Positions 8,812 through 56,462 of a stretch of DNA of 58,360 bases are shown here, one piece after another. A program made the position numbers and the translations under genes. Each line of letters starts with the position of its first letter. Position 1 is the stretch's first letter. This stretch comes from an uncultured Planctomycetales bacterium. Lineage in GTDB: Bacteria; Omnitrophota; Gorgyraeia; Aquiviventales; Aquiviventaceae. The stretch covers positions 1-58,360 of the forward strand of contig CAYJWN010000001.1 of the NCBI GenBank assembly GCA_964373835.1, in the 5' to 3' direction. The notes below the pieces were generated by a model. That model searched no databases and was not told where the DNA came from. It saw nothing but the letters and a program-made list of their open reading frames with translations.

Positions 8812-8854
8812 GTCACCCCTCCAGCCTGCACGACGCTGAGAGCCACATCGCGGG

Positions 8855-10632: not shown

Positions 10633-10647
10633 CGATCGCACTCCTCC

Positions 10648-17272: not shown

Positions 17273-17339
17273 GGTTGAGTCTCCATTTTCAGGCCCTCCC
17301 ACGGGCCCCTGTTGCCTCTCGCCGCATCCCACCTTTCAT

Positions 17340-36463: not shown

Positions 36464-37325
36464 GGATGACCTCGCCTTCGCTGTCGCGGCACGGCACGCC
36501 CTGGGCGGCCAGGAACGTCTTGAGTTCCCGGACGGTGGTGTCTTGGATATTCGAGAACCCCTGCCGCGTCTTGAGGTACTCGGTGTTCCCTTCACCCACA
36601 CGCACGGCTGGTTCCTGCAGCGTCCGCACGACCCCGTAGTGGAGCAGCGAGGCCAGACAGACGGCATCCGCCTGACCCTGCGCCACCACATCGTACACAT
36701 CGCTGGGCCGACCGGCCCCGCCGCAGGCGATGACGGGAATGGCCACAGACTCGGCCACCTGCCGTGTTAACTCCACATCAAACCCCTTGCCGGTGCCCTC
36801 GCGATCGATGGACGTCAGCAAGATTTCCCCGGCCCCCAGCTCGGCCACCCGCCTAGCCCATCCCACCGCATCCACGCCGGTCCGCTGACGGCCGTTCTCC
36901 GTGTACGCCTCGTAGTGTCCATCGGACGTCTTGATCGCTTCGATGGACACCACGATCGTGGAGGACCCGAATCGCTGGGCGGCGTCTCGAATCAACTCCG
37001 GCCGCTGGATCGCCGCCGTATTCAGCGACACTTTGTCTGCCCCGACCCGCAACACCGTCCTCATATCCTCCACCGTCCGCAGCCCTCCACCGACGGTCAT
37101 GGGGATGAAGATTTCTCGTGCGGTTCGCTCAATGATATCCAACAGACTGTTGCGCCCGTACAGACTCGCCACGATGTCCATGTAGAGCAGCTCATCCGCG
37201 CCCTGCTCGTAATAGCGGCGCGCGAAGTCTTCCGGCTTGCCGAGCACGCGCAGACCCTCCAGGTGAATCCCTTTGACGAGGTTCGGACCTTTGATATCCA
37301 GGCGTGGAATGATACGCATGCTCAT
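36456..37325 (-). CDS. HisF-like cyclase/ammonia-channel subunit (paired with HisH-like)
   Basis: MRIIPRLDIKGPNLVKGIHLEGL, PMTVGGGLRT, ADKVSLNTAA, SIDREGTGKGFD. ATGA overlap at 37322-37325. Confidence 0.85.
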   Translation of the reverse strand: MSMRIIPRLDIKGPNLVKGIHLEGLRVLGKPEDFARRYYEQGADELLYMDIVASLYGRNSLLDIIERTAREIFIPMTVGGGLRTVEDMRTVLRVGADKVSLNTAAIQRPELIRDAAQRFGSSTIVVSIEAIKTSDGHYEAYTENGRQRTGVDAVGWARRVAELGAGEILLTSIDREGTGKGFDVELTRQVAESVAIPVIACGGAGRPSDVYDVVAQGQADAVCLASLLHYGVVRTLQEPAVRVGEGNTEYLKTRQGFSNIQDTTVRELKTFLAAQGVPCRDSEGEVIHA

Positions 37326-41977: not shown

Positions 41978-43030
41978 TCACTCGACCATCCCCCAGGTCA
42001 ATACCGTACCGGCGGCGATGTCCGTTTTCGCCGTTCGGCCGATGAGCTGCGGACGCAGCGCCGGCGGCAGGCCGGTGCCCGGCCGCTTGATGGCGATGAG
42101 CCGCTCCGTCAACCGTGTACCTGCCGGAATAGCCAAGGCCGCCACCAGGCTCTTGCGCGCGACCGCGGCGGTATCGGCCTCCCCGGCCGTCGGCCGCTTC
42201 TGTCCATCCCCAAGCGCAGCCTCCACCGCCCGGATGCCGCGCACCAATGCGGAAAATTCCTGAGGTTCCGCTGAGACCTGGTGATCTGGACCCGGCAACG
42301 ACCGATCGAGCGTCAGGTGCTTTTCGATCACGCAGGCGCCTAAAGCGACGGCGGCGAGCGCCACTTCGATGCCTGCCGTATGGTCCGAGTACCCGACAGG
42401 GACGTGAAAGGCGTCGGCCATCGTCTGCATCGCCCGCAGGTTGGCTTCGGCAGCATTGGCAGGATAACTTGACACACAGTGCAGCAGCACCAGCTGATCG
42501 TTGCCAGACTCGTGGATCGCCTGCACCGCAGCGTTAACCTCGCCCAGATCCGACATCCCTGTAGACAGGATGATCGGTTTCGCTTTGCGCGCCACATGCG
42601 AGAGCAGGGGCAGGTTCGTCAGCTCACCAGAGCCGATCTTGAACGCCGGCACCCCCACACCCTCCAGGAGATCGGCGCTGTCTTCATCAAAGGGCGTTGA
42701 GAGGAACAAGAGGCGCTGCGCCTGCGCCTGCGCCTGAAGTTCCGGAAACGTCGCCGGAGGAAGCTCAAGACGACGGATCATCGCCAACTGCGACTCAATT
42801 GCCTCGGTCGCCTTCCGCTGATACTCGGCCTTTGGGGCCACAGGACTCACGAGCCGTTCGGCCTTAAACGTTTGAAACTTGACCGCATCCGCCCCAGCCG
42901 CGGCCGCCGCATCGATCAGGCGTTTCGCCAATTCGACGCGCCCATTATGATTGACCCCGGCCTCCGCGATGATGAAACAGCGCTGCCCCGGACCCACCAG
43001 GCGGCCGGCGATCATCACGGGACTTACCAT
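41978..43030 (-). CDS. legI: Nonulosonic acid synthase (NeuB/LegI family) with C-terminal SAF domain
   Basis: RCFIIAEAGVNHNGRVELAKRLIDAAAAAGADAVKFQTF, GYSDHT, C-terminal SAF-like IKRPGTGLPP. Start is ambiguous (ATG 43039, 43030 or 43015). The ORF-track N-terminal ~143 aa is rejected. Confidence 0.85.
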   Translation of the reverse strand: MVSPVMIAGRLVGPGQRCFIIAEAGVNHNGRVELAKRLIDAAAAAGADAVKFQTFKAERLVSPVAPKAEYQRKATEAIESQLAMIRRLELPPATFPELQAQAQAQRLLFLSTPFDEDSADLLEGVGVPAFKIGSGELTNLPLLSHVARKAKPIILSTGMSDLGEVNAAVQAIHESGNDQLVLLHCVSSYPANAAEANLRAMQTMADAFHVPVGYSDHTAGIEVALAAVALGACVIEKHLTLDRSLPGPDHQVSAEPQEFSALVRGIRAVEAALGDGQKRPTAGEADTAAVARKSLVAALAIPAGTRLTERLIAIKRPGTGLPPALRPQLIGRTAKTDIAAGTVLTWGMVE

Positions 43031-43869
43031 GCGGTCCATCCCCCATCCACCACCAGGCTCTGTCCGGTCACATACGCGGACAGGTCGCTGGCCAGATAGG
43101 CCACCGCCCCCTTGAGATCTCCTTCCGTCGCCATGCGGCCCAGGGGTATACGCGCCACGTAGCGCTGGTGAAACATCTCCGGCTGGTCGCGCCAAATCCC
43201 ACCGGGCGTGATGGCATTCACCCGAACGTGCGGCGCCAACGTGGTCGCCAGATACCGCGTCAACTGGAGCAGTCCCGCCTTGGACACCCCATAGGCAGCC
43301 GGATTGGCCATGTCCGTACCCTCGTAGAGATGGGGATCGGGCGCCGCCAGGCCGTAGATGGAGGCGAAGAAAATCACCGTCCCATGCCCCGATTCGACCA
43401 ACGCCTGCTTGGCTTCTTGGACCATGACAAAAGCAGAAGTCAAGTTCACCTGCATGGCGGCGTTCCACGCCTCTACGGTCTGCTGGTCAAACGGCACGGC
43501 CCATCCCGGCACGGGCGTCGTACCGACGTATGCCGCGCAGTGGATGAGAATTCCAATCCCACCCATCGACTCATGGGCCTGGCGAATCGCGCGGCGGGTC
43601 GCCTCCTCATCGCGCAGATCGCAGGGCAACGGCACCGCGCGTCCGCCCTTCGACGACTCTCCAAGCGATTTCACCCGTTGCTCCACCGCCGCCCCATCGT
43701 GGTCGAGCACGGCGACGCTGGCTCCCAACTCCATCAACGTCTCACAGATCACGGAGCCGACGTGCCCTGCCCCTCCTGTCACGAGCGCCTTGCGCCCGGA
43801 CAGGTCCATGAGTTGGGCAAGCGACCGTGCGCTGCGTGTGAGGCTGACGTCCGAAGCGGAGCCTCTCAT
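43024..43869 (-). CDS. Short-chain dehydrogenase/reductase
   Basis: KALVTGGAGHVGSVICETL, YGVSKAGLLQLTRYLA. ATGA overlap at 43866-43869. Confidence 0.75.
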   Translation of the reverse strand: MRGSASDVSLTRSARSLAQLMDLSGRKALVTGGAGHVGSVICETLMELGASVAVLDHDGAAVEQRVKSLGESSKGGRAVPLPCDLRDEEATRRAIRQAHESMGGIGILIHCAAYVGTTPVPGWAVPFDQQTVEAWNAAMQVNLTSAFVMVQEAKQALVESGHGTVIFFASIYGLAAPDPHLYEGTDMANPAAYGVSKAGLLQLTRYLATTLAPHVRVNAITPGGIWRDQPEMFHQRYVARIPLGRMATEGDLKGAVAYLASDLSAYVTGQSLVVDGGWTAW

Positions 43870-44612
43870 CGCACCGGACTCTCGCTGAGCCACGGCAGCA
43901 CAATGCGGCCGCTTTTCACCAGCAGCTCTGCGCGCTCAAACTGCTCCACGGTGTCGATCGACATCGCGCGTGATTCCGGGATTTCGTACAAGCGGTGCCG
44001 GCCATCCTGACGCCACGAGCGCGCCGACCGCACGAAGGCTGTGCGCCACAGGTAGAGCGAGCCGTTGATGCGGTAGACCGGCCGCACGTCCTGCCGGCGC
44101 TCCACGCGGGCCCCCTCCTCGAAGAGATCCCCCATCCACCCGTCTCGCTCCACGACACAATGCCAGATCGGGTTGAACTCCGGTCTCGACACCCCAATCA
44201 CCCCATCAGCGCGTGGCTGTTCTTGAAGGCGGCGCATGGCGCCGGAGATATCGGCAGGTTCTCGGGCCGGCGAGGTCGGATCCAGGAGGAGCAACAGATC
44301 ATACGACGCCGCTTCACGCGCCTCCACATGGGCCAGCGCATGCTGAAGGACCGGCCAGATCGGCGTGTCATCCTGGGCCAGCGCCGCCGGACGCACAAAC
44401 GGCACGTCGGCGCCGAAGCGCACCGCGACCTCGGCAATCTCCGGCGAATCCGTCGAAACGATGCACCGACCAATCTCAGGGCACAACTTCGTATACAAGA
44501 TCGTATGGGCAATAAGCGGCAGCTCCGCAAACGGGCGGAGGTTCTTGCCGGGCAGCCCCTTCGACCCGCCCCGCGCCGGAATAACTGCCAGGATTTTCGG
44601 CGCCGATCTCAT
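43866..44612 (-). CDS. legF: CMP-nonulosonic acid synthetase (acylneuraminate cytidylyltransferase, NeuA/LegF-like)
   Basis: ILAVIPARGGSKGLPGKNLRPFAELPLIAHTI. ATGA overlap at 44609-44612. Confidence 0.85.
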   Translation of the reverse strand: MRSAPKILAVIPARGGSKGLPGKNLRPFAELPLIAHTILYTKLCPEIGRCIVSTDSPEIAEVAVRFGADVPFVRPAALAQDDTPIWPVLQHALAHVEAREAASYDLLLLLDPTSPAREPADISGAMRRLQEQPRADGVIGVSRPEFNPIWHCVVERDGWMGDLFEEGARVERRQDVRPVYRINGSLYLWRTAFVRSARSWRQDGRHRLYEIPESRAMSIDTVEQFERAELLVKSGRIVLPWLSESPVR

Positions 44613-45592
44613 GGATACTCCACCCGTTCCTCGCACCGTTGCGCTGACGAGCGCCGAGCGGCGTCACAAACCGCCAACGCGCTCACCCCGTCGTCCCCTG
44701 TGGCAAGCCGTGGGTCATGCTGATCCCAGGACGCGTCAAGGAAGGCGCGGGCCTGGGCCGCAAACATCTTGTCACGGGTCTGGGCCGGACGTTCTACGTG
44801 AACCGGTTTGACGTCCGCTTCGATGGTCGCGGTTCCGGCCACCCCATCCCACTCAATCGTTCCGCGCTCACCACGAACCGTCAGACGCCTGCAGGACGGT
44901 CGCGAGAGGTAGTCAAGTTGCACAGACACCACACACCCCGTCGCTGTTTCCCAACTCACGTCCGCAAGCTCCTCTGCCTCAATCCCTAGCCGCCCAAAAT
45001 TCTTAAGACGTCCTTGTAGGCGCTGCGGCCAGCCGAAGAGCCAGCCCGCGTAGTCAATCTCGTGGATCAGGTCCCGGAGGACGCCGCCCTCGTGGGCCCG
45101 CGCGGAGTACGAATCTTGATACGGCCGGTCCGGCCGCCACTCGGGCAGGTACGACTGACAGGTAATCCGCACCGCGTGCAACGGACCCAGCTCCGGCAGC
45201 CACTCCCGGCATCGGGTCAGCGACGCGGAGAATCGCAGCACGCAGCCCACGAAGACCTGCCGTCGCAGCTGGAGCGCGCGCTGAAGCAAGCGATGACCCT
45301 CCGGTGCGTCTGTCGCCAGCGGCTTCTCGATGAGAACCTCTAGCCCGTGCTCCATGGCCGTCAGCGCGTCCGCGGTGTGTCGGCCGGTGTCGGTCGCCAC
45401 CACACAGTGGGAGGCTCCCTGCGCAGCCGCTTGGTCAAGATCCGCGGTGACCCTGTACCCTCCCCGCCGCAATGGGCTGAGGCGCTCCGGGCGCACCGGA
45501 ATCGCCAGGGGCTGCACCCCCGGCATCTGGCGGAGCACCTCGATATGACGCAGTCCGATGGTCCCGGTCCCGAGCACGGCGACAGTGGTCAT
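44609..45592 (-). CDS. Gfo/Idh/MocA-family oxidoreductase
   Basis: MTTVAVLGTGTIGLRHIEVL Rossmann N-terminus, with GAGG 7 nt upstream of ATG 45592. The alternative ATG 45655 would form an ATGA overlap with the upstream stop. Confidence 0.7.
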   Translation of the reverse strand: MTTVAVLGTGTIGLRHIEVLRQMPGVQPLAIPVRPERLSPLRRGGYRVTADLDQAAAQGASHCVVATDTGRHTADALTAMEHGLEVLIEKPLATDAPEGHRLLQRALQLRRQVFVGCVLRFSASLTRCREWLPELGPLHAVRITCQSYLPEWRPDRPYQDSYSARAHEGGVLRDLIHEIDYAGWLFGWPQRLQGRLKNFGRLGIEAEELADVSWETATGCVVSVQLDYLSRPSCRRLTVRGERGTIEWDGVAGTATIEADVKPVHVERPAQTRDKMFAAQARAFLDASWDQHDPRLATGDDGVSALAVCDAARRSSAQRCEERVEYP

Positions 45593-45651
45593 CTGGCTGC
45601 CTCGGCTGGTACGAGGCTCCTCCCTTCGGCGGTCGCTGACAACCGCACGGT

Positions 45652-46359
45652 TCATAGGAGTCCTCCGTTGATATCAAGGACTGCGCCGTTGATGTACGAG
45701 GCCGCGTCACTCGTGAGGAACGCGATGGCCTGGGCGACTTCGCTCGGCTCAGCCAACCGGCCGAGCGGATTCGCGCGCGCCGCCGACCGGAGGCGAGCCC
45801 TTGGCACGGCGCGCAGTAACATCTCGGACCTGGTTTCCGATGGGCAGATGCAGTTAACCGTGATATGGTTTTTGCCAAATTGGGCCGCTAGCTGACGGGT
45901 CAGGCCGATGACGGCGTACTTTGAGCTGGTATACGCCAGGGAGGCGCTTCGACTGTACGAACGCCCCGCGATGGACGACAGGTTCACGATGCGCCCATAG
46001 CGCTGCCGGCGCATGTGGCTCAACGCCTGCTTGCAGCAGAAATAGGTCCCGATGAGATTCGTCCTCAAAACAGCCTCCCAGTCCGCCAAACGCAACCGCA
46101 GCGGGTCGGTCATTGACACGATACCGGCGCAATTGACTAGAATGTCGACCCGTCCTAATCGCTCGACGATCCGGTGGAACGCCCGCGTCACCGATCGCTC
46201 CTCTCGCACATCACAACGGATGGATGTGTCAGTTTCGGCAAGAGACCGCGAGAGGCCGACGGTCCGGACGGCTTGCGCTCGGAACAGTTCGAGAGTGGCT
46301 CGGCCGATCCCACTGGACGCTCCTGTGACGACGGCCACCCGAGACTCCTCACGCGACAT
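45652..46359 (-). CDS. Short-chain dehydrogenase/reductase
   Basis: VAVVTGASSGIGRATLELF, NCAG, YTSSKYAVIGLTRQLA. Confidence 0.75.
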   Translation of the reverse strand: MSREESRVAVVTGASSGIGRATLELFRAQAVRTVGLSRSLAETDTSIRCDVREERSVTRAFHRIVERLGRVDILVNCAGIVSMTDPLRLRLADWEAVLRTNLIGTYFCCKQALSHMRRQRYGRIVNLSSIAGRSYSRSASLAYTSSKYAVIGLTRQLAAQFGKNHITVNCICPSETRSEMLLRAVPRARLRSAARANPLGRLAEPSEVAQAIAFLTSDAASYINGAVLDINGGLL

Positions 46360-47521
46360 AGACGTGTTCCATGTCCCTCGCCCCGCAGGCCAGCCGGATC
46401 CCCGGCGTCTCGCTGGTGCACCGGATCTCATGCGTCAACCCGCGGGGCAAGGAGACGACATCGCCCTGCGTGGCGGTCAGCACCGTCCCATCGCCGAGGT
46501 GCCACTCAAAGGTCCCTTCCAGGACAATCCACCACTCGGCATGGGTCACATGGCAGTGCTTGCGCGCCCCCTCGCCGGGCCGCTGGCAGATCAAGGCGAT
46601 TTGGTCGGTGGGGCTGTAGACCAGCAGATAGAGCCAGGGGGCCGGTCCCATCCGTTGCTTGATCGCGTCGAGGTTGCTGAGCCGTGTGTTGGCTCCTGAA
46701 TCCTCAAACCGTGCGACCCCATCACGCCCGATCAGGTCGTGCAGGCACCGCTCGATTCCCAGCACGCGCTCCGAGAAGCGAAACTGTCCCAGCCGTTCCT
46801 GCTGACGACGATGCTGGAGGCATGCCTCGATCATGTAGAGGTCATCCCACGTATCAGCATCCAGGGCCTGGATGCGATCGAGGACAAACGTCCCGGTCTT
46901 GCCGCAAAAGGTCGGGCCGGGCTCGCGCGGGTCGTTCCGCTGATACGAGGCCATGAACGAGGCCGTCTTCCAGCCGGAGAGCGCCCAGGTGATGAGCTGG
47001 ACCGGCTGCAACGTTTGCGTCGGATCTTTCTTCGAAGCCGAGAAGTTCAACGGCGCACCCTGATACAAGGTTTCAGTGTATCGCTCCTCCACGGACAGGA
47101 GTGAATCATAGCCGTCCCGCTCGAGGGTCTCCATGAACGTCTTCAGCGTGTCCGACTTCACCAGCGGCGAAGTCGTGTGGACGAGGGCCAGAGCACACGG
47201 TTCGCGCTGCTCCATGAAGTCATAGAGAAAGTGGTCGTGCGTCTGGCATCGGCTCCCAGTGCACTGACGCGATGCGTTGCTCATCAGGCAGGTCGAACCT
47301 CCTCGCTCCGGCCGGCGGCTGTAGAAGGAGACGCCGAGCATTGAGGCCATGGTCCCGAAGATCTCATGCTCCGAGTTGATGTAGATCTCGTCGAACACCC
47401 CGCTCTCCTGGCAGACCCGCGCCGCATAGAAAGCCAGCGGTGCCCCATCCACCAGGAGAAGGTTCTTGTCCGGAATCCGGGTGCTCCCTAGCAGCGCCGG
47501 AATCAGCGCGATGCGCTTCAT
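46349..47521 (-). CDS. Fusion protein: NeuA/KdsB-superfamily cytidylyltransferase domain plus C-terminal cupin domain
   Basis: MKRIALIPALLGSTRIPDKNLLLVDGAPLAFY (CTP-transferase type 3). There is a Cys-rich insert CLMSNASRQCTGSRCQTHDH. C-terminal cupin: HCHVTHAEWWIVLEGTFEWHLGDGTVLTATQGDVVSLPRGLTHE. ATGA overlap at 47518-47521. Confidence 0.7.
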   Translation of the reverse strand: MKRIALIPALLGSTRIPDKNLLLVDGAPLAFYAARVCQESGVFDEIYINSEHEIFGTMASMLGVSFYSRRPERGGSTCLMSNASRQCTGSRCQTHDHFLYDFMEQREPCALALVHTTSPLVKSDTLKTFMETLERDGYDSLLSVEERYTETLYQGAPLNFSASKKDPTQTLQPVQLITWALSGWKTASFMASYQRNDPREPGPTFCGKTGTFVLDRIQALDADTWDDLYMIEACLQHRRQQERLGQFRFSERVLGIERCLHDLIGRDGVARFEDSGANTRLSNLDAIKQRMGPAPWLYLLVYSPTDQIALICQRPGEGARKHCHVTHAEWWIVLEGTFEWHLGDGTVLTATQGDVVSLPRGLTHEIRCTSETPGIRLACGARDMEHVYVA

Positions 47522-48603
47522 CGGACCGTCGAGCGCCCCGACAGATGCGCCACTTCGTACTCCCGGCAGAGCCGATCCAGCACTTCCATGGCGGCGGGCG
47601 TTGCCTGCGCGGCCGCAAACTGCCTGCGCAGGGATAGTTCGTCCGCCTCGGTTGCCCCCCTCTGAGGCGGCTGCCACCCGTTGTCTCGGTAGACCTTCAG
47701 TTCCAGACCGTCGGCGATCAGGCGTCGAGGTACGCGCTGCCGCCGCAATTCCCGTCGGGTCGCCGATGTCATGGTTGTCCCCATGACTCGTTCCAACTGG
47801 TGGAGGTACGGCCAAGGCTCCAAGACAAATTGTTCAAATGGGATCGTCACAATCCGCCCGGCCTGCGCAGCACTCACATGGTTCAGGATGGTGTTGCGCA
47901 GCCGTCCCAGGTGGTCGATAGCATAGATCACGCGGTCCATCTGATCGCAAGAGAGATAGCGCACCTCCCACCCTTGGGCGAACCACGGCACAGCCCGTTC
48001 CCCCGCCTCCACCCAGATGGTGAAATCTCGGACATCGGTCCCGTACCGCGCAATATAGAGAAACCACTGCTTGAGCATGTAGAGCGGATGTCGGACGACT
48101 TCAACGATCACGAGGCGATCGTCCAGCGCCTCGATCAGCGGCTCACTGATCGGCAGGAGATTATGCGTGATCAGATTCAGGATGGGCCGCTCGCGCGCGA
48201 TGCGTCGCATGCTCGCCTCCCCATCGGGCTGGAAGAGGCGCCGCAGATAGCGCCAGGCGCGTGGATGGCGAAACGCACTGGAGAGATCCGCCGGCCGGAA
48301 GTTCGTTTCCCGGGACGCCGACAGGTCATACAGATCCAAGTCCGTAAGCATACGTACCATCGCCACCGCCGCATCGTCGGTAATACGCCCCAGATACCGC
48401 AGCGCACAGATGTACTCGAGCGGGTAGTTGTACTTCTCCACTTCGACACGATCGAGCGCGCTGACGATCGCCGACAACAGCGTCTTGCCGCATCCCGGCA
48501 GCCCGTCCACACAGACCACGCGCTCCGCCAGATGAGGCGGCCGGATAACCCGCACCGTTTCGGCGGGAGCGCGCAGCGACGGCGCCTCGCTCGTGAGCGT
48601 CAT
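47518..48603 (-). CDS. P-loop protein, sulfotransferase- or kinase-like
   Basis: VCVDGLPGCGKTLLS (Walker A / PAPS 5-prime-phosphosulfate-loop-like), and later VVRHPLYMLKQW, which resembles the RDP-type 3-prime-phosphate motif of sulfotransferases. ATGA overlaps at both ends. Confidence 0.45.
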   Translation of the reverse strand: MTLTSEAPSLRAPAETVRVIRPPHLAERVVCVDGLPGCGKTLLSAIVSALDRVEVEKYNYPLEYICALRYLGRITDDAAVAMVRMLTDLDLYDLSASRETNFRPADLSSAFRHPRAWRYLRRLFQPDGEASMRRIARERPILNLITHNLLPISEPLIEALDDRLVIVEVVRHPLYMLKQWFLYIARYGTDVRDFTIWVEAGERAVPWFAQGWEVRYLSCDQMDRVIYAIDHLGRLRNTILNHVSAAQAGRIVTIPFEQFVLEPWPYLHQLERVMGTTMTSATRRELRRQRVPRRLIADGLELKVYRDNGWQPPQRGATEADELSLRRQFAAAQATPAAMEVLDRLCREYEVAHLSGRSTVR

Positions 48604-49232
48604 CGCACGCTGGCTCCCAGGGGTTCGGCCGCGGCCACGCGGCGCTTGCGGACCGGCGGGCGCTCGCGGGTTGCCGCGATGACGAGGTCGCAGACCGCCA
48701 GCAGCCAGATGTGGTGCGTCATCTCCACCACGTTGTACGAACGGCTGTTGACCCAGAAGTTCAGATCCCCTAACTGCCGGAGTGGATTCGTCGCCGCAAA
48801 GCCGGTCAAGGTCACCAGCCGCAGGCCGCGGCCCCGCGCGTAGCGGGCAGCATTGACCATGTTCATGGACTTGCCGCTGGAACTGATGAGAATGACGAGA
48901 TCACCCGAATCGGCATAGAACTCCAGCGCCTTCTCCACCCACCGCTCGTAGCCGAAGTCATTGGCCAGGCACGTAATCAGGTCGGTCTCGTTGAAGTTGA
49001 CGCAGCGGATCCCCGCGGCCTTCGTGAAGTCCACCGCGCAGTGGCTCGCCATGGCAGCGCTGCCACCGTTGCCCGCGATGATGACCTTGCGGCCTTTGAC
49101 ATGCGCCTCCACGATCATCGCCTTGAGGGCCACGAGCTGATCCAGGACCCCGCCCTGAAGGAGCATCGTCCGGAACCGCTCGAGGTGCTCCGCCAGCCAG
49201 CTGCGCTCGTCCCCCACCACCGTGTTAGCCAT
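48600..49232 (-). CDS. SIS-domain sugar phosphate isomerase (GmhA-like), second copy
   Basis: KVIIAGNGGSAAMASHCAVDFTK, ILISSSGKSMN. Confidence 0.75.
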   Translation of the reverse strand: MANTVVGDERSWLAEHLERFRTMLLQGGVLDQLVALKAMIVEAHVKGRKVIIAGNGGSAAMASHCAVDFTKAAGIRCVNFNETDLITCLANDFGYERWVEKALEFYADSGDLVILISSSGKSMNMVNAARYARGRGLRLVTLTGFAATNPLRQLGDLNFWVNSRSYNVVEMTHHIWLLAVCDLVIAATRERPPVRKRRVAAAEPLGASVR

Positions 49233-50265
49233 TGGCGTACACCTTGTCGACGAGCTTCATCAGCGTCAGCGCATCCCGCGACATCCCGATCGTCACGGGC
49301 CGGTTCTGCTCGATGGCGGCGAGGAAGTGCTCGACCTCGTAGCGCCACGAGTTGTTCACGTCGAACCGGAAGTGCTCCTCATCGCTCCACGTCGCCGCCG
49401 GCGCCGTCGTGCGGTTCTTCACCACGGTCATCACCTCTTCGCCATAGGTACCCGAACTGGTCAGGAGCCCGTTGATGACGATGTAGCCCTTCTCCAGGAA
49501 GATCTCCAGTGAGAAGAGGTGCCGCCACTGAGTCATCGTGGAATGCAGCGATGCCACCACCCCCTGCCGGTTGCGCAGGATGGCGAAGACGTTGTCCTCG
49601 ACGTCGAGCTTCCAGTAGAGGTTCGAGACGTACGCATGCACCTCGTCGAAGTCGCCCCCCATCAGCAGGAAGAGGTCCAGCATGTGGATGCCCTGGTCGA
49701 TGAGGATGCCGCCGCCCGCCAGCTCACGCTTGGCGCGCCAGGTGCTGTAAAAGCTCTCATCGACGCTCTTGCCGTAGCGGCCGCGCATCCACAGCAGCCG
49801 GCCGTAGACGCCTGAATCGACTAGCTCCTTGGCCTTCTTGATGCTGTCGTGGTGCCGGTGGTTGAATCCGTACATCAGCTTGGAGCCTGACGACCGCTCC
49901 GCCTCGATGACCGCTTCGACCTCGCGCGCGGTGAAGGCTGGGGGTTTTTCGCAGAAGACGTGCTTGCCCGCCTTGAGGGCGGCGATCGTCAGCGGCTGAT
50001 TGAAGGCGTTCGGAGTGCAGATGAACACCGCCTCCACCGCCGGGTCGGCCAGCAACGCGTCGGCGGTGGCGTAGCGCTGAACCTCGGGCAGCAGGACGGC
50101 GGGCTGGGGCTCTGCGATTGCCACGACCCGTCCCTTCCCGTTCTGCGCGATCACCTGATTGCGGATCTGTCCCATCGTGCCAAACCCGACGATGCCGATG
50201 TTGATCAGCCTGCGGCGCGCTTCCTGTGTCCTGGCCTTCGGGGTAGCAATCACCGACTCGGGCAT
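49225..50265 (-). CDS. Gfo/Idh/MocA-family oxidoreductase
   Basis: INIGIVGFGTMGQIRNQVIA, VFCEKPPA, GGILIDQGIHMLD. GGGAGGTGG lies 5 nt upstream of ATG 50265. Confidence 0.8.
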   Translation of the reverse strand: MPESVIATPKARTQEARRRLINIGIVGFGTMGQIRNQVIAQNGKGRVVAIAEPQPAVLLPEVQRYATADALLADPAVEAVFICTPNAFNQPLTIAALKAGKHVFCEKPPAFTAREVEAVIEAERSSGSKLMYGFNHRHHDSIKKAKELVDSGVYGRLLWMRGRYGKSVDESFYSTWRAKRELAGGGILIDQGIHMLDLFLLMGGDFDEVHAYVSNLYWKLDVEDNVFAILRNRQGVVASLHSTMTQWRHLFSLEIFLEKGYIVINGLLTSSGTYGEEVMTVVKNRTTAPAATWSDEEHFRFDVNNSWRYEVEHFLAAIEQNRPVTIGMSRDALTLMKLVDKVYANG

Positions 50266-51356
50266 CGCACCACCTCCCGACAGTCTCTCAACGTCTGCAG
50301 ATACTCACGGCACGCCCCCCTCAGCCGCTCGTCATTGCGGTATCGGTCGCGGAAGACCTGCCCTGGTCCGCGGAGGAGGATGAGGGTCAGCGCGTCCTCC
50401 GTGTTCTTTTTATCGCGGCTGAGGGCGGTGAAAAACCGCTCCTCCGGCAGCGGGGTCTGCTCAAAGCCGGCGTAGTTGGCGGCCAGCAGCGGGTGCAGCT
50501 CGTCGTACGCCGCCGGCTGCAAGAACCCGAACTGCACAGAGAGGAAGTTTGCCAGATCCATGCCGATCGTGACCGCGATGCCGTGCGGCACGGCGTAGTC
50601 CGTCGCGCTCTCAATCGCGTGGCCGAAGCTGTGGCCGTAGTTCATCACCAGCCGCTCGGCCCGGTCGAACTCATCCGCCTCGATCTTGGCCTTCTTGATC
50701 TCCAGCGAGCGTCGGAGGTAGTGCGTCATGAGATCGGAGTCGTGCAGGAGCCGCGGGTAGTCGGCCGCGATGGCGCGCGCGTCCTCCCAGCCGGCGATGA
50801 TGTGGACCTTGATCATCTCCCCAACGCCCGAGCGTACGTCAGCCTCTGGCAGGGTCTTGAGCACCTCGGTTGAGATGACGATGTCGTCCGGCGGCGTGAA
50901 CGTGCCAAGCTGGTTCTTGTAGCCACCGACGTTCAGCGAAGATTTAGACCCGATGCAGCTATCCGCCTGAGCCAGAAGCGTTGTGGGGTAGAACCGCCAG
51001 CGGAGCCCCCGTAGCAGCGTGGCGGCAAGAAACGCGGTGATGTCCTGAACGATCCCCCCGCCCACAGCAATGAGCCGGTGGGTCCGCCGAATCCCCTTCT
51101 CCAGCAGGAACGTCACGTACGCCGGCAACTGCTCCAGCGATTTATTGGCCTCCGTCGGCTCAATCTGCAAGACCGACCGGCTAGCTAGTGCCCGCGCCAG
51201 GCGGCCCTCGTAGAGCCGGGCCACGCGCGCATCGATGAGCAGGTGCTCGTCGGCCCCCACACCCCCCTCCAGCCCGGCGAACGCCGGCCCGAACCGAACC
51301 GTGTACGGCCCGCGGTGCGACTGAATCACCAGATCACGCACAGACAAATCCTCCAT
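50250..51356 (-). CDS. 3-dehydroquinate synthase-like sugar phosphate cyclase superfamily protein
   Basis: LIAVGGGIVQDITAFLAATLLRGLRWRFYPTTLLAQADSCIGSKSSLN, GVGEMIKV, NYGHSFGHAIES...PHGIAVTIGM (DHQS metal/NAD motifs). First ATG at 51356; the ORF-track start at 51362 is TTG. Confidence 0.8.
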   Translation of the reverse strand: MEDLSVRDLVIQSHRGPYTVRFGPAFAGLEGGVGADEHLLIDARVARLYEGRLARALASRSVLQIEPTEANKSLEQLPAYVTFLLEKGIRRTHRLIAVGGGIVQDITAFLAATLLRGLRWRFYPTTLLAQADSCIGSKSSLNVGGYKNQLGTFTPPDDIVISTEVLKTLPEADVRSGVGEMIKVHIIAGWEDARAIAADYPRLLHDSDLMTHYLRRSLEIKKAKIEADEFDRAERLVMNYGHSFGHAIESATDYAVPHGIAVTIGMDLANFLSVQFGFLQPAAYDELHPLLAANYAGFEQTPLPEERFFTALSRDKKNTEDALTLILLRGPGQVFRDRYRNDERLRGACREYLQTLRDCREVVRCPSR

Positions 51357-52086
51357 CAACAATAATCTGCTGGCCGGTCAGGTACGAGTTGTCTTCACTG
51401 ACGAGAAACCGCACGTAGCGCGCCAGTTCCTCTGGACGGGCCAACCGTCCGATCGGGATCAGTCGGACCATCTCGGCAATCCCCTGTTCACCCAACACAT
51501 GGTGCGTCATATCGGTGTCGACGAACCCTGGAGCCAGACAATTTACCAGGACGTTATGAGCAGCAACTTCCAAAGCAAGCGCCCGGCTGAGCCCAAACAG
51601 ACCAAACTTGCTGGCTGAGTAGGCTGCACGTCCCGCTTTGCTGACCACACCAAAAATTGAAGTAATATTGACAATCCGTCCGAATCTACGCCGGCACATG
51701 CCTGGCACCACGGCCTGGCAGAACCTAAATGGCGCCACCACGTTCACCTGCTGGATCCGCAGGAAGTCTTCAAGCGCATAGGTGGTGGTGGGCCCTGCCT
51801 TGTTGATGCCCGCGTTATTGACGAGGATGGACAGTTCCATCTCCGCAACGGCTCGTAGAAGAGCGTCCAACTGCCCAGTGTCTGAGAAATCGCAGTTCAC
51901 GTACCGGCAGCGTGCGGGGAACTTGCCCTGTGGTGAGGTGCCGGTCACGGTGACGTCAAGACCGGCCTTGACAAGTTCCGCCGCGACCGCGGCCCCAATC
52001 CCACGGGTACCCCCGGTAACAAGCGCCTTCTTCAGACGTGGTGTGGACCGAGCAGAAATCCGCCGCACCTTAGTTGCTGTGCTCAT
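51334..52086 (-). CDS. Short-chain dehydrogenase/reductase (FabG-like)
   Basis: KKALVTGGTRGIGAAVAAEL, NNAG, YSASKFGLFGLSRALALE. Confidence 0.8.
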   Translation of the reverse strand: MSTATKVRRISARSTPRLKKALVTGGTRGIGAAVAAELVKAGLDVTVTGTSPQGKFPARCRYVNCDFSDTGQLDALLRAVAEMELSILVNNAGINKAGPTTTYALEDFLRIQQVNVVAPFRFCQAVVPGMCRRRFGRIVNITSIFGVVSKAGRAAYSASKFGLFGLSRALALEVAAHNVLVNCLAPGFVDTDMTHHVLGEQGIAEMVRLIPIGRLARPEELARYVRFLVSEDNSYLTGQQIIVDGGFVCA

Positions 52087-52119: not shown

Positions 52120-53940
52120 TCAGACATATAACTTGGCGTACTCCCCTTGCACATGCATTAATGCCTCGTGTGTTCCGTTTTCAATAATCCGCCCGCCTTG
52201 TAGGAGCACAATCTGATCAGCCCCTTTAATCGTGCTGAGTCGATGAGCAATTACAATGACCACCGTGTCCTTGCGGAATGATTCGATGGACACGTACACG
52301 GCTTTTTCCGTCAGATTGTCGAGCGCGCTGGTGGCTTCATCAAAGATCAAGACTTCCGGCCGCCTCAAGATGGCCCTGGCAATCGACAATCGCTGGCATT
52401 GTCCGCCGGACAGCTTGACTCCGCGGTCTCCCACAACAGTCTCATAGCCCTCAGGCAAGCTCAAAACGAACTCGTGGAGCTGGGCGAGCCTCGCCGCCCA
52501 CTCGACTTCTTCTTGAGTCACGGCGCTATCCCACAGGGCGATGTTTTGGCGCACGCTTTCGTTAAACAGGAACACGTCCTGCGGGACGTAGCCAATCTTC
52601 CGACGCCACGCCGCTAAGTCCAACTCTTCAAGGTCGATCCCATTGACGAGGATCTTGCCTGACGTGGGGCGGAACAACCTCATGAGCAGGTTCGCCAACG
52701 TACTTTTGCCTGACCCGGTTGGGCCGACGATTGCCGTGATTTCTCCACGGGTCATCTTCATGTTGAGACCCGTGAGGACCATCGGAAGCGCCGGTCCATA
52801 TTGAAAAGCCAGGTCCACCAACTGCAATTCCTTCACCCGTCCGCTCCGTAACCCTCCCCGTGGCTCCGTCGGTGTGGACTCCAGGATCTCCTCGATCACT
52901 TCCACATGTCGCCACTCACTCCGTAATTGAACGTTGGTTGAATGGACCGTCGCAAAAAGCGGGCTCAGACGCCTCAAGGCCACAAAGAAGACCACGATCT
53001 CGGAAAATTGCATGTGAACCCACCGCCAACCCAACGTGATGCCTGCCAACGCAATCACCACAATCCCAACGACCACTTCGTTCAAGCAGTTCGTGCCATG
53101 CTTCAGCCAGACCAAGCGCCGCCGCGGCACGAGCTCGCCAGCCAAGACCGATTCCTGCTGCGCAACAACGCTGGCTGCCAGCCCATGCGCCTTCATGATC
53201 TTGAGCCCATCAATCGCATCGACATCGATTTCGTTTTCCTTGGTATTGAGCTCATAAATCTGACGTCCGCACTCCGAAGATTTTCGGTCGACCGTGCCCC
53301 GCCACACCTGCACCCAGACCAATGCCGTGACACCCACGCCCAACGTTGCCCACCATGAGAGATAGAGCATCAACCCAACCAGGACGAAGCCGTTGAATGC
53401 CGATGAGAGGAGTATGAATGTCAAGTAGATGAAGTTATACATCGACCTGGAAGGCGTGTTGACGTCAAAGAGAATCGATCCACGGCCCTTCGCCAGCAAA
53501 TACCCGTACTCAGCCTCCAGCATCTTGGTCAGCAAGGTGAGCTTGAATTCGCGGCGGAGCTTCTGGGCGATCACTGTCCCAACATACTGTTGGATCGAAA
53601 AGAATGCACTGCGCAGGATGGCCATGCTCGTGACCATGGCCAAGAAGACAAAAAGGATGATGTTCGTGGTCGTGCTCAGCCCTACCGCCTTCATCGCTGA
53701 GACCACCATGACGACAATTCGGTTCTCTGATGCGCGTTCCGACTTCATTGCAATATCGAGCAGCGGCACGCCAAGCCCCACCGTGGTCATCTCCAGCATC
53801 GCGACCGCAAGCATCAGCCCAAACACGGTTGCGAACTGCCACAGATGAGGACGGATCGCCGCCCTCCAGTAAAACCCCTGGAACCACCGGCGCGGAAACA
53901 AGACCGCGCGTCGAAGCAACTGACTAATTGGCTCTCGCAT
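52120..53940 (-). CDS. Fused TMD-NBD ABC exporter (MsbA/PglK-like half transporter)
   Basis: Six-helix N-terminal TMD. Walker A GPTGSGKSTLANLL, signature LSGGQCQRLSIARAIL, Walker B LIFDEATSALD. No clear SD before ATG 53940. Confidence 0.85.
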   Translation of the reverse strand: MREPISQLLRRAVLFPRRWFQGFYWRAAIRPHLWQFATVFGLMLAVAMLEMTTVGLGVPLLDIAMKSERASENRIVVMVVSAMKAVGLSTTTNIILFVFLAMVTSMAILRSAFFSIQQYVGTVIAQKLRREFKLTLLTKMLEAEYGYLLAKGRGSILFDVNTPSRSMYNFIYLTFILLSSAFNGFVLVGLMLYLSWWATLGVGVTALVWVQVWRGTVDRKSSECGRQIYELNTKENEIDVDAIDGLKIMKAHGLAASVVAQQESVLAGELVPRRRLVWLKHGTNCLNEVVVGIVVIALAGITLGWRWVHMQFSEIVVFFVALRRLSPLFATVHSTNVQLRSEWRHVEVIEEILESTPTEPRGGLRSGRVKELQLVDLAFQYGPALPMVLTGLNMKMTRGEITAIVGPTGSGKSTLANLLMRLFRPTSGKILVNGIDLEELDLAAWRRKIGYVPQDVFLFNESVRQNIALWDSAVTQEEVEWAARLAQLHEFVLSLPEGYETVVGDRGVKLSGGQCQRLSIARAILRRPEVLIFDEATSALDNLTEKAVYVSIESFRKDTVVIVIAHRLSTIKGADQIVLLQGGRIIENGTHEALMHVQGEYAKLYV

Positions 53941-54147: not shown

Positions 54148-54891
54148 TTAGGACACGGTGGAGGGTGCGGACAGCTCAAGGCGCAGCCCAGCCTTCACGG
54201 CATCCTGTCGGAACATCCGGACAGTCTCCACTGAAAATTCCGTGAGGTCCTTGCCGACCAGCGGGAGTTTGGCCAGCACCTCGCTCGTGGCGGTAATGAT
54301 GTGGCAGCCCACCGCCTCCGCCTGGAAGATGTTCAGCAGCTCCCGCGGGCTGGCCCAGATGAGTTCCATGCGCGGGCGGGCACGCATGATCCGAAGGGAC
54401 TCGGCGACCAGCGGCACGGGATCGCGACCGGTATCAGCGATCCGTCCGGCAAAGATGGAGATGTAGCTGCTCAGCTCTTCGGCCATACAGGCGGTGATGT
54501 CAGCGACTTGTTGTGGCGTCATCACGGCCGTCACATTGAGTTTGACGCCCGCCGCGGAGAGCTTGCGGATCAGCGGGCCGGAGAATTCGCCACACGTGTT
54601 CGTCACGGGAATTTTCACGTAGACGTTGCCCCCCCACGAGGCGATCTCGCGCGCCTGCCGCTCCATATCCGCGAAGTCGTCCGAGAATACCTCAAAGGAA
54701 ATCGGCCGGTCCGCAATGAGGGCCAGCACCTCGCGCGCGAAGCGGCCGTAGTCGCGGACACCCCCTTTGCGCATCAGCGTCGGGTTCGTAGTAAACCCCG
54801 TGATCAGCGGATTCCTGGCCAGCTCCGCCATCGTCGTCAAATCGGTCCCGTCGGCGAACAGCTTGACGTGCAATTCGCGCACACCGCTCAT
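54148..54891 (-). CDS. Transaldolase/fructose-6-phosphate aldolase family protein (short TalC/FSA-like type)
   Basis: LFADGTDLTTMAELARNPLITGFTTNPTLM, VYVKIPVT (Schiff-base Lys), SIFAGRIADTG. GGGGAG lies 6-7 nt upstream of ATG 54891. Confidence 0.75.
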   Translation of the reverse strand: MSGVRELHVKLFADGTDLTTMAELARNPLITGFTTNPTLMRKGGVRDYGRFAREVLALIADRPISFEVFSDDFADMERQAREIASWGGNVYVKIPVTNTCGEFSGPLIRKLSAAGVKLNVTAVMTPQQVADITACMAEELSSYISIFAGRIADTGRDPVPLVAESLRIMRARPRMELIWASPRELLNIFQAEAVGCHIITATSEVLAKLPLVGKDLTEFSVETVRMFRQDAVKAGLRLELSAPSTVS

Positions 54892-56038: not shown

Positions 56039-56462
56039 GAAGCTCCTGCGAAATGAACGCCATCTTCTTGTGGAACAACGTCTCCTCCAGGGCTCTCAGG
56101 TCAGCCGAGTCCATGAAGTCGCGGTACGCGAAGGCCTTATACTCAAGAAAGTCCAACGGCTCACCATACAGCAGGGTTCCGCCGCTGAGGATCTCGTACC
56201 GGAACAACGGATCGGCTTGGCGCAGCAAGACCACATCCACCTCGTATCCAGCAAAGACATCCGACAACGCCTGGGAGGCGGCCCCCCACCACTCCAGGCT
56301 TCCGTCGCTGCGCCCAACGAGTGCGAGGTCCACGTCACTTTCTGGTCCTGGCGGCGGTGTCCCAGTGGAGCGCGATCCGTACAGGATGACCAGTTGAAGC
56401 CCCAGCTCTTGGCAGACGCGCTCCAGACGTTGCGCGTCATAGCTGACAAACGGCGAGGTCAT
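56025..56462 (-). CDS. Minimal nucleotidyltransferase (MntA-type antitoxin-like), now orphan
   Basis: [26 protein letters not shown] (GS...DxD NTase motif). ATG 56462 forms an ATGA overlap with the UXS stop (56459-56462). Confidence 0.7.

Follow-up and report, generated by a model that had tools for sequence, protein, structure and literature searches.

The subject of this study is a run of seven genes on the minus strand at 45652..52086 of a 58,360-nucleotide stretch of DNA from an uncultured Planctomycetales bacterium (GenBank assembly GCA_964373835.1, contig CAYJWN010000001.1, positions 1 to 58,360; referred to throughout as the window), and in particular a short-chain dehydrogenase (SDR) gene and the adjacent gene for a protein related to 3-dehydroquinate synthase (DHQS). 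The window is one long, almost wholly minus-strand glycan-biosynthesis cluster with a GC content of ~63%. An earlier description made from the letters alone (the sequence-only reading) had delimited the seven genes as an activated-sugar module, and both the gene positions and the assigned families agree with our Pfam and NCBIfam searches (Table 1). In the direction of transcription the genes encode an SDR (SDR1), the DHQS-like protein, a Gfo/Idh/MocA oxidoreductase (Gfo), a GmhA-like SIS protein, a 361-residue P-loop protein, a fusion of a cytidylyltransferase and a cupin (CT-cupin) and a second SDR (SDR2).

Neighbouring genes of the run overlap by 4-16 bp, with 8 bp shared between SDR1 and the start of the DHQS-like gene, and a gap of 33 bp separates SDR1 from an ABC exporter gene. 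An alternative open reading frame (ORF) for the DHQS-like protein begins at a TTG codon, reaches 51362 and would encode 370 amino acids. The chain of overlaps runs on below 45652 through a second Gfo/Idh/MocA gene, a second cytidylyltransferase gene, SDR3 and NeuB, with overlaps of 4-7 bp; more than seven genes thus make up the operon, and where the module ends on this side depends on interpretation. The mechanical ORF list fuses SDR3 and NeuB (41978..43893, minus strand), and the 496-residue 'NeuB' ORF in that list is an over-extension.

Table 1. Features of the window discussed in the text, with the evidence for each assignment.
Feature	Position	Strand	Evidence and remarks
SDR1	51334..52086	-	Classical FabG-type SDR; Pfam adh_short_C2 3.6e-50
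DHQS-like protein	50250..51341	-	363 aa from a GTG start, in agreement with the public gene call; PF01761 1.8e-31, PF24621 3.8e-29
Gfo/Idh/MocA oxidoreductase	49225..50265	-	Pfam 4.7e-27 and 3.3e-22
SIS protein, GmhA-like	48600..49232	-	Pfam SIS_2 4.1e-13
361-aa P-loop protein, predicted sulfotransferase fold	47518..48603	-	AlphaFold model and Foldseek
CT-cupin	46349..47521	-	Pfam CTP_transf_3 1.9e-11, Cupin_2 6.2e-12
SDR2	45652..46359	-	Classical SDR; Pfam adh_short_C2 9.2e-52
MsbA-type ABC exporter	52120..53940	-	ABC_membrane and ABC_tran; directly upstream of SDR1
Transaldolase	54148..54891		PF00923, 136 bits
Second Gfo/Idh/MocA, PtmF-like	44609..45655	-	Pfam, NCBIfam, public gene call
Second cytidylyltransferase, PseF/LegF-like	43866..44612	-	Pfam, NCBIfam, public gene call
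SDR3	43024..43869	-	281 aa; public gene call
NeuB	41978..43030	-	350 aa; public gene call
SerA/PdxB-like D-2-hydroxyacid dehydrogenase	10648..11640	-	2-Hacid_dh_C 1.1e-50
Intein-split NDP-sugar dehydratase/epimerase	56459..58327	-	Intein_splicing 68.8 bits, LAGLIDADG_3 47.7 bits; flanks Epimerase/GDP_Man_Dehyd
Radical SAM enzymes (three)	39184..40755, 15845..17332, 21592..23514	-	Two of three with B12-binding domains
HisH-like and HisF-like genes with 409-aa ORF	34558..37325	-	409-aa ORF without Pfam match
CDP-hexose region	6565..11640	-	Includes the D-2-hydroxyacid dehydrogenase above
Four large ORFs	12413..14011, 13965..15938, 27426..29333, 29072..31450	-	532-792 aa, no Pfam match

The DHQS-like protein

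In Pfam the DHQS-like protein matches DHQ_synthase domains only, and its homologues are publicly annotated as '3-dehydroquinate synthase'. In NCBIfam it matches TIGR04425 with 447.9-448 bits (cutoff 400; E 2e-134) over model positions 1-347 of 348, whereas the score for the aroB equivalog TIGR01357 is 245.5 bits, under the cutoff of 305, in agreement with the earlier view that the gene is not a shikimate remnant. TIGR04425 is named 'AroB-related putative sugar phosphate phospholyase (cyclizing)' and has the model type 'hypothetical equivalog'. The identity of the protein to true AroB proteins is 33-36%, and a tblastn search of plasmid sequences returned true aroB genes at this level of identity and no member of TIGR04425. 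No other shikimate gene is present among the ~50 annotated ORFs of the window, as the sequence-only reading had also said.

All of the NAD, zinc, phosphate and substrate ligands of DHQS are present when the protein is aligned by residue to DHQS structures. The equivalent residues are R118, D134, K140, N150, E182, K185, K223, R237, N241, H244, H248, H260 and K318/K319, numbered on the 370-residue form; numbers in our alignment of 74 homologues, which uses the 363-residue form, are seven lower. We take their counterparts in the Aspergillus nidulans enzyme to be R130, D146, K152, N162, E194, K197, K250, R264, N268, H271, H275, H287 and K356. The ligand columns are invariant across the 74 homologues and the GGGxxxD motif for NAD is kept, so that the chemistry of oxidation, phosphate elimination and re-reduction is almost certainly retained, as judged from these residues. 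We propose that the protein is an NAD+/Zn-dependent phosphate-eliminating enzyme.

The nearest solved structures by sequence score are those of DHQS (120-143 bits), followed by DOIS (94), the EEVS ValA (81) and DDGS (72). This closeness to DHQS does not prove 3-deoxy-D-arabino-heptulosonate 7-phosphate (DAHP) to be the substrate, because the EVS clade, which uses sedoheptulose 7-phosphate, also nests near DHQS (PMC5133447). With AroB (TIGR01357) and the sugar phosphate cyclases (aminoDHQS, DOIS, EEVS, EVS, DDGS and EboD/DEI synthase) the protein shares the two-domain fold, PF01761 with PF24621, the GGGxxxD motif and the DHQS ligands. It differs from them in having an NCBIfam family of its own, with about 35% identity to AroB, in a setting that is always a glycan or nucleotide-sugar locus, in the SDR gene that obligatorily adjoins it, in its interchangeability with a phosphatase and perhaps in not cyclising its substrate. 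A review of cyclitol biosynthesis from 2026 covers the products of DHQS, DOIS, EEVS and DDGS as well as EboD and describes nothing resembling TIGR04425 (PMC12904256). Our full-text literature search found no paper on TIGR04425, nor one linking the family or the gene set to nonulosonic-acid, CMP-sugar or nucleotide-sugar loci; this and the 'hypothetical equivalog' model type are in line with the earlier statement that the gene set maps to no described nucleotide-sugar pathway.

Distribution of the pair and its exchange with a phosphatase

TIGR04425 is a large family, with at least ~6,900 protein clusters among the scored candidates and at least 597 loci in species-representative genomes. These loci span Nitrospirota, Pseudomonadota, Desulfobacterota, Bacteroidota, Verrucomicrobiota and Patescibacteria, and are also found in SAR11/SAR86/SAR116, Firmicutes and some archaea. 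Cultured carriers include Desulfosudis oleivorans, Joostella sp. CR20 and Lachnospiraceae NC2004. Synteny was compared over 160 related loci, of which 80 genome loci were recovered via the DHQS-like protein. Full-length homologues from the related loci match TIGR04425 at E 1e-90 or better in 73 of 74 cases, and the remaining one is a true aroB that adjoins a family member in locus L072. The DHQS-like gene lies in a glycan locus in 80/80 genome loci, and a classical FabG-type SDR gene is immediately upstream of it in 75/80, as it is in the window; this partner rule for TIGR04425 was derived in the present analysis and not by the curators of the family.

The conserved unit across the related loci is the SDR and DHQS-like pair and not the seven genes, and in this respect the proposed module did not hold. 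A homologue of the 361-residue protein occurs in 4/80 genome loci, in variable positions, fusion of the cytidylyltransferase to a cupin is rare, and SDR2 has a true orthologue (61% identity) in L001 only, its best match elsewhere being the homologue of SDR1. L001, from a Nitrospiraceae metagenome-assembled genome (MAG), is the closest genome locus, with 61-70% identity across the module and a NeuB gene within 10 kb. The transaldolase gene that had been put forward as a source of sedoheptulose 7-phosphate is indeed present upstream in the window; its association with the module did not stand, and a role as dedicated supplier was rejected, since none of the 80 related loci has one nearby.

Two kinds of neighbourhood were distinguished. 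In class A (50 loci, including the window), Gfo/Idh/MocA genes are found in 43/50 loci, SerA/PdxB-like D-2-hydroxyacid dehydrogenase (2HADH) genes in 39/50, GmhA-like SIS genes in 30/50 and KdsB/NeuA-type cytidylyltransferase genes in 43/50, with NeuB within 10 kb in 5/50. Less frequent members are HpcH/HpaI aldolase (17/50), a PF04199 'cyclase' hydrolase (11/50), YhcH/DUF386 (~10) and, in some loci, Maf-like transferases. Among the 34 well-flanked class A loci the commonest set comprises 2HADH, cytidylyltransferase, Gfo, SIS, SDR and DHQS-like genes, with neither aldolase nor NeuB; 30/34 carry the cytidylyltransferase and 30/34 the 2HADH, which most class A loci encode directly after the DHQS-like protein. 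The frequency of the cytidylyltransferase and the rarity of NeuB fit a CMP-activated, C7-derived acidic unit, in line with the activated heptose-derived unit that had been suggested. We considered whether the HpcH aldolase and the Gfo/SIS/2HADH genes are alternative routes to one substrate; this was rejected as they co-occur.

In class B (25 loci, including archaeal ones), an acetolactate-synthase-like enzyme dependent on thiamine pyrophosphate is present in 25/25 and a cytidylyltransferase in none. In 24/25 the pair is accompanied by an HpcH-like aldolase (13 loci) or else by a NeuB-like synthase, an FGGY kinase or both (11), and the aldolase never occurs together with the synthase or the kinase. 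CDP-hexose genes (CDP-glucose 4,6-dehydratase/E1-type, yersiniose-like) and a polyprenyl-phosphate-type family 2 glycosyltransferase (GT2) are often carried as well. Examples are L058, L060, L067, L069, L072 and L080 and, in archaea, L044, L065 and L077. Outside both settings, a lone SDR and TIGR04425 pair adjoins a gene for an AFG1-like ATPase in a Magnetospirillum sp. MAG (L005, 9298..11083), with none of the cassette gene families within 10 kb of the pair.

A search of metagenome contigs with the Gfo protein of the window revealed many cassettes with orthologous Gfo, SIS, 2HADH, HpcH and KdsB-like or other cytidylyltransferase genes, but without the SDR and DHQS-like pair. In these sister cassettes a gene of the inositol monophosphatase (IMPase) family (PF00459, 132-162 bits) fills the exact slot of the pair, and it does so in two arrangements: 'Gfo SIS [IMPase] 2HADH' against 'Gfo SIS [SDR DHQS-like] 2HADH', and '[IMPase] 2HADH Gfo SIS' against '[SDR DHQS-like] 2HADH Gfo SIS'. 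Of the loci that have an orthologous Gfo and flanks of 3.5 kb or more to either side, 38 had the pair and no IMPase, 8 had the IMPase and no DHQS-like gene, 2 had neither and 0 had both.

The exchange can be followed in L008, which carries the pair and is nearer to the phosphatase-bearing L118 and L133 than to other pair-bearing loci. Identities between L008 and these two are 77-79% for HpcH, 73-78% for the KdsB-like enzyme, 75% for the methyltransferase, 78-80% for Gfo, 71-72% for SIS and 70-73% for 2HADH; identities of 70-80% in six genes indicate that the swap is recent and that the remaining pathway is unchanged. The pair-bearing cassettes contain no other enzyme able to remove a phosphate, though the SIS step implies a phosphorylated intermediate. 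We infer that pair and phosphatase share one phosphorylated substrate, from which the pair removes the phosphate by elimination instead of hydrolysis.

The sister cassettes themselves (L093, L095, L096, L106, L108, L110, L113, L114, L116, L118, L120 and L133) consist of Gfo/Idh/MocA, GmhA-like SIS, IMPase-family phosphatase and 2HADH genes, with optional HpcH aldolase and KdsB-like cytidylyltransferase genes. From its gene content such a cassette appears self-sufficient for making a CMP-activated acid with no NeuB or KdsA. We found no description of it.

Partner proteins and the surrounding glycan cluster

The nearest solved structures to the Gfo protein of the seven-gene run are glucose-fructose oxidoreductase, levoglucosan dehydrogenase, DgpA and aldose-aldose oxidoreductase, and by analogy with these we propose that it is a sugar-phosphate dehydrogenase acting at the aldose C1. 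The best named relatives of the SIS protein are GmhA proteins, but its score against the NCBIfam gmhA model is 75.5 bits, far under the cutoff of 209. It keeps the phosphate-binding SSSGKS and NDFGYE motifs, and at the positions of Burkholderia pseudomallei GmhA that were compared H64 is kept, E68 is replaced by Asp, Q175 by Glu and H183 by Leu. On these features it is a GmhA-like phosphosugar isomerase, not demonstrably GmhA.

Neither Pfam nor NCBIfam gave a match for the 361-residue protein, whose 654 homologues are all annotated as hypothetical; a few of them, 50-55% identical, match PF13469. An AlphaFold (AF2) model with a predicted local distance difference test score (pLDDT) of 87.7 was searched with Foldseek, and the 19 matches at E <=1e-3 were all sulfotransferases (best E 1.4e-6; target-normalised TM-score up to 0.61), led by TPST1/2, the CurM and OLS sulfotransferase domains and the mycobacterial Stf1/9. 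Its loop corresponding to the 5'-phosphosulfate-binding (5'-PSB) loop reads GLPGCGKT, resembling the Walker A motif of kinases. The earlier label 'sulfotransferase/kinase-like' is thus right at the level of fold, and sulfation is plausible from the model. In L013 a different sulfotransferase, recognisable by Pfam, adjoins the DHQS-like gene; BLASTP detected no homology between it and the 361-residue protein, so the recurrence of sulfotransferases is at the level of fold or family only. The 361-residue protein is a lineage-specific accessory and a putative sulfotransferase that may act on the product or on the glycan.

The cytidylyltransferase part of CT-cupin matches PF02348 with 44.7 bits (cutoff 22.6) over residues 4-143 and PseF with 55.7 bits, under the cutoff of 205.7. 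Its P-loop reads IPALLGSTRIPDKN, in which the Arg of the canonical CTP-binding 'PAR(G)GSK' is replaced by Leu. The window shares this feature with L001, L020 and L023, a sub-lineage in which 'IP(A/V)LLGSTR(I/V)PDKN' replaces 'IPARGGSK', whereas other members of the cluster keep 'PAR'. We propose CT-cupin, from its domain composition, as the putative CMP-activating enzyme of the acid made by the module. Its cupin domain may handle the ring or anomer form, and in L001 and L084 a gene of the sialic-acid anomerase family YhcH/DUF386 adjoins the CT-cupin gene.

A 2HADH gene lies 38 kb away in the same glycan cluster (10648..11640). Its best NCBIfam match is phosphoglycerate dehydrogenase (186 bits, under cutoff), and it is a candidate for the 2HADH step missing from the cassette. 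For the ABC exporter of the window, the 80 genome loci gave no homologue covering at least half of the protein. Several loci do have an exporter of this architecture next to the cassette, with similarity to the window protein only in the ATPase half (41% identity over 227 residues).

Downstream of the run lies a legionaminic-type gene set comprising a 4,6-dehydratase, a DegT aminotransferase, a PglD-like acetyltransferase, a NeuC-like epimerase, NeuB and a cytidylyltransferase, and the region also holds a B12-binding radical SAM enzyme and a Maf/MptE-like transferase. In a characterised legionaminic cluster the genes for PtmA (an SDR), LegF and PtmF (an oxidoreductase) are adjacent (PMC4481668, Table 5), and SDR2, the second Gfo and the second cytidylyltransferase of the window resemble this trio. 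SDR2 may therefore belong to the legionaminic set as a PtmA-like enzyme, or to the module discussed here, and SDR3 is an equally good candidate for PtmA.

Farther along are CDP-hexose genes, a D-2-hydroxyacid dehydrogenase, several GT2 glycosyltransferases, methyltransferases and further radical SAM enzymes. One of the three radical SAM genes is inside the legionaminic operon, and L001 has a radical SAM gene as well (6650..8008); C-methylation of the nonulosonic acid could be their role. In Magnetospirillum gryphiswaldense, C10 ulosonic acids linked to CMP and of unexplained origin have recently been reported (bioRxiv 10.64898/2026.04.20.719630); the sole Magnetospirillum locus in our set, L005, has the pair with no cassette. 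Genes for a HisH-like glutamine amidotransferase and a HisF-like cyclase adjoin a 409-residue ORF which clusters with genes accompanying HisH/HisF in related loci. We take the three to be a trio of the WbuX/WbuY/WbuZ type, which suggests that the legionaminic-type acid carries an acetamidino group.

The CDP-hexose region contains glucose-1-phosphate cytidylyltransferase, CDP-glucose-4,6-dehydratase-like and D-2-hydroxyacid dehydrogenase genes and a 789-residue ORF that joins RmlD-like and DegT-like domains and may be two genes merged by over-extension; CDP-hexose genes recur near TIGR04425 in other genomes. The four large ORFs in Table 1 are candidates for unrecognised glycosyltransferases or polymerases. 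Upstream of the run are the ABC exporter, the small transaldolase/FSA-family gene, a MarR-like regulator and an NDP-sugar dehydratase/epimerase gene with a UDP-xylose-synthase-like 'RIFN' motif, which is split by an intein with a LAGLIDADG homing endonuclease.

Proposed pathway and competing explanations

Taken together, we tentatively favour the reading that the region is a copy of a widespread cassette for a CMP-activated acidic sugar, made with no synthase of the NeuB or KdsA type, in which the SDR and DHQS-like pair strips a phosphate by elimination. The product would more probably be an ulosonic acid with a deoxy terminus than a carbocycle, and it would then be CMP-activated and in this lineage perhaps sulfated. 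The earlier suggestion of a heptose-derived or carbocyclic unit is supported in part, and the phosphatase swap tilts the balance towards a deoxy-ulosonic acid over a cyclitol. Near-identical cytidylyltransferases, aldolases and methyltransferases in both versions of the cassette, together with the anomerase-family or cupin and Maf-like proteins of the pair-bearing version, indicate that the product most likely stays a true 2-ulosonic acid with a deoxy terminus. YhcH/DUF386 or cupin domains beside or fused to the cytidylyltransferase, and Maf/MptE-like transferases in 13 loci, likewise point to a real anomeric sugar. The aldolase, or the synthase and kinase, of class B could be a way to build an alpha-keto-acid phosphate, and we count it in favour of this reading.

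For loci with no aldolase, such as the window, the following route can be envisaged, with step order, C7 skeleton and stereochemistry all assumed. The SIS protein would isomerise a C7 sugar phosphate, probably sedoheptulose 7-phosphate, to a heptose 7-phosphate, which Gfo would oxidise to heptonate 7-phosphate in analogy to glucose-fructose oxidoreductase. The DHQS-like enzyme would then convert heptonate 7-phosphate to 7-deoxy-6-keto-heptonate, a terminal methyl ketone: NAD+ would transiently oxidise the hydroxyl that lies two carbons away from the carbon bearing the phosphate, phosphate would leave by beta-elimination, and re-reduction would follow. Since this scheme turns the carbon adjoining the former phosphate ester into a ketone, a ketoreductase would be an obligate partner, and one gene (the phosphatase) would be replaced by two (lyase and reductase); SDR1 is proposed, from its family, as the ketoreductase that acts on the ketone left after phosphate elimination and would yield 7-deoxy-heptonate. 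The 2HADH, in the window probably the distant one, would give 7-deoxy-hept-2-ulosonate by analogy with SerA/PdxB, and CT-cupin would make the CMP-sugar from it. The sulfotransferase-fold protein may add sulfate in this lineage, and the unit would enter the same surface glycan as the legionaminic-type acid.

In the Kdo (KdsA/KdsC/KdsB) and Kdn/Neu5Ac-9-phosphate pathways a phosphorylated acid is also dephosphorylated just before activation by an enzyme of the KdsB/NeuA family, and the sister cassettes have a phosphatase at this point. The differences are that most cassette loci have no phosphoenolpyruvate (PEP)-dependent synthase, the alpha-keto acid seeming to come from Gfo and 2HADH and/or an HpcH pyruvate aldolase, and that the phosphatase of the sister cassettes belongs to the IMPase and not the haloacid dehalogenase (HAD) family, with a lyase and a reductase in its place at this locus. 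The proposed sequence of NAD+ oxidation, terminal beta-elimination and reduction to a methyl group parallels, as an analogy that we infer, the NDP-hexose 4,6-dehydratase/reductase systems behind the 9-deoxy terminus of legionaminic and pseudaminic acids; here phosphate would leave from a free sugar-acid phosphate, where those systems expel water from a nucleotide sugar, and the fold is that of DHQS and not an extended SDR. The partners fall in the families of SerA/PdxB (phospho-aldonate 2-dehydrogenases) and GmhA, whose reactions the proposed steps copy, but the cassette members score far below the equivalog cutoffs and the catalytic/zinc site of the SIS protein is altered. The CMP-legionaminic pathway (LegB/C/H/G/I/F with PtmA/PtmF) is adjacent and co-transcribed, shares the SDR, Gfo/Idh/MocA and CTP_transf_3 families and probably serves the same glycan; unlike it, the module lacks its own NeuB, its own aminotransferase and its own acetyltransferase, and most genomes with the module have no nonulosonic-acid genes. 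The kinds of enzyme are thus known, and what is new is their combination, the lack of a PEP-dependent synthase and a DHQS-family enzyme with a reductase in the place of a phosphatase.

Several points weigh against this reading. The SIS protein has Leu in place of one GmhA catalytic/zinc histidine, the CT-cupin P-loop lacks its canonical Arg, and the window and its closest relatives L001 and L084 have no adjacent 2HADH or HpcH gene, the candidate 2HADH of the window being 38 kb distant beside CDP-hexose genes. The Gfo proteins of the swap-bearing cassettes are 39-56% identical to that of the window, so the swap is extrapolated to this locus, and 36/38 of the pair-bearing loci were gathered via the DHQS-like protein search itself. 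With all DHQS residues kept, a C7 2-ulosonate 7-phosphate would be expected to cyclise as DAHP does, and to avoid this the 2-keto group is assumed to be installed afterwards. Every step of the mechanism is drawn from sequence and synteny.

The invariant residues favour a carbocyclic product, the alternative in the sequence-only reading, which we regard as unlikely but as the most serious competitor. Here the DHQS-like enzyme would cyclise a C7 2-ulose or 2-ulosonate 7-phosphate, similar to DAHP or sedoheptulose 7-phosphate and either made by the cluster or drawn from central metabolism, to a ketocyclitol of the dehydroquinate or valiolone type. The SDR would reduce this, and the resulting quinate-like carba-acid would either carry CMP on its tertiary hydroxyl or serve as an aglycone or substituent. 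In favour are the invariance of every residue of cyclising DHQS, the lead of bona fide DHQS over DOIS, EEVS and DDGS among the nearest solved structures by sequence score, and the cyclising activity of every characterised member of the superfamily (PMC12904256). The class B aldolase, or the NeuB-like synthase with the kinase, could build a DAHP analogue, and a KdsB-like enzyme might accept quinate. Quinate is isosteric with the pyranose form of 3-deoxy-heptulosonate, and the deoxy-ulosonate and carbocycle candidates are isomers, of formula C7H12O6 if the skeleton is C7. However, a saturated tertiary carba-centre would be of no use as a glycosyl donor, yet the cytidylyltransferase, aldolase and Maf-like transferases are those of the phosphatase versions (70-80% identity), an anomerase-family protein lies beside the cytidylyltransferase, and characterised sugar phosphate cyclases need no obligate adjacent SDR. 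A more specific form of this reading seems to us distinctly unlikely: the product would be a CMP-linked, quinate-like 'carba-ulosonic acid', a carbocycle that mimics a heptulosonic acid, bears sulfate in this lineage and is present in a surface glycan or as a stable nucleotide-linked metabolite.

The occurrence of the pair in two very different contexts, classes A and B, and occasionally alone, as in the Magnetospirillum locus, together with the existence of the Gfo-SIS-2HADH-cytidylyltransferase cassette without it, could also mean that the pair is independent, making a small cyclitol or deoxy-keto block from a central metabolite for various glycans, with the Gfo, SIS, 2HADH and cytidylyltransferase genes serving separately. 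The exclusivity with the phosphatase would then be a coincidence, and we consider this improbable, as the exclusivity is perfect (38 against 8 loci, none with both), concerns the same slot in two arrangements, and leaves the pair-bearing cassettes with no other enzyme for removing phosphate.

The translational coupling to the legionaminic genes, and the fact that trios of SDR, Gfo and cytidylyltransferase are typical of legionaminic clusters (PMC4481668) and that L001 also has NeuB within 10 kb, would be accounted for if the module were a paralogous PtmA/PtmF/LegF-like set that modifies the nonulosonic acid of the adjacent genes, or its precursors, and makes no sugar of its own. This is very unlikely, since NeuB is within 10 kb in only 5/50 class A loci, the phosphatase sister cassettes are mostly without a NeuB homologue nearby and DHQS chemistry needs a phosphate ester. 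We know of no phosphate ester of the required kind in the legionaminic pathway. That the DHQS-like gene is the organism's aroB or a redundant shikimate paralogue, as the Pfam domains and public annotation would have it, is extremely improbable in view of scores below the aroB and above the TIGR04425 cutoff, 33-36% identity to real AroB, a glycan setting in 80/80 loci together with an SDR partner, a true aroB in L072 in addition to the family member and no shikimate genes nearby.

The presence of the pair in place of a phosphatase leads to the hypothesis that DHQS chemistry has been newly used for deoxygenation of a sugar-acid phosphate or for formation of a carba-sugar. If the favoured reading is true, the protein would be the first non-cyclising member of the DHQS superfamily, deoxygenating a sugar-acid phosphate in lieu of a phosphatase; if a carbocycle is made, it would be the first carba-sugar of the ulosonic class and the first CMP-activated carbocycle. 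In either case, finding TIGR04425 within a CMP-sugar cassette leads to a concrete hypothesis about a new nucleotide-sugar pathway, at a time when untargeted surveys of CMP-sugars are beginning to detect unassigned species (bioRxiv 10.64898/2026.04.20.719630). Genes of this family are labelled '3-dehydroquinate synthase' in very many genomes and metagenomes, a systematic mis-annotation that the present assignment corrects and that can inflate calls of a shikimate pathway as present in MAGs. For the organisms that carry the cassette, the data point to undescribed acidic surface sugars in environmentally important groups, among them Nitrospirota-like bacteria, SAR11/SAR86/SAR116, Verrucomicrobiota and Bacteroidota.

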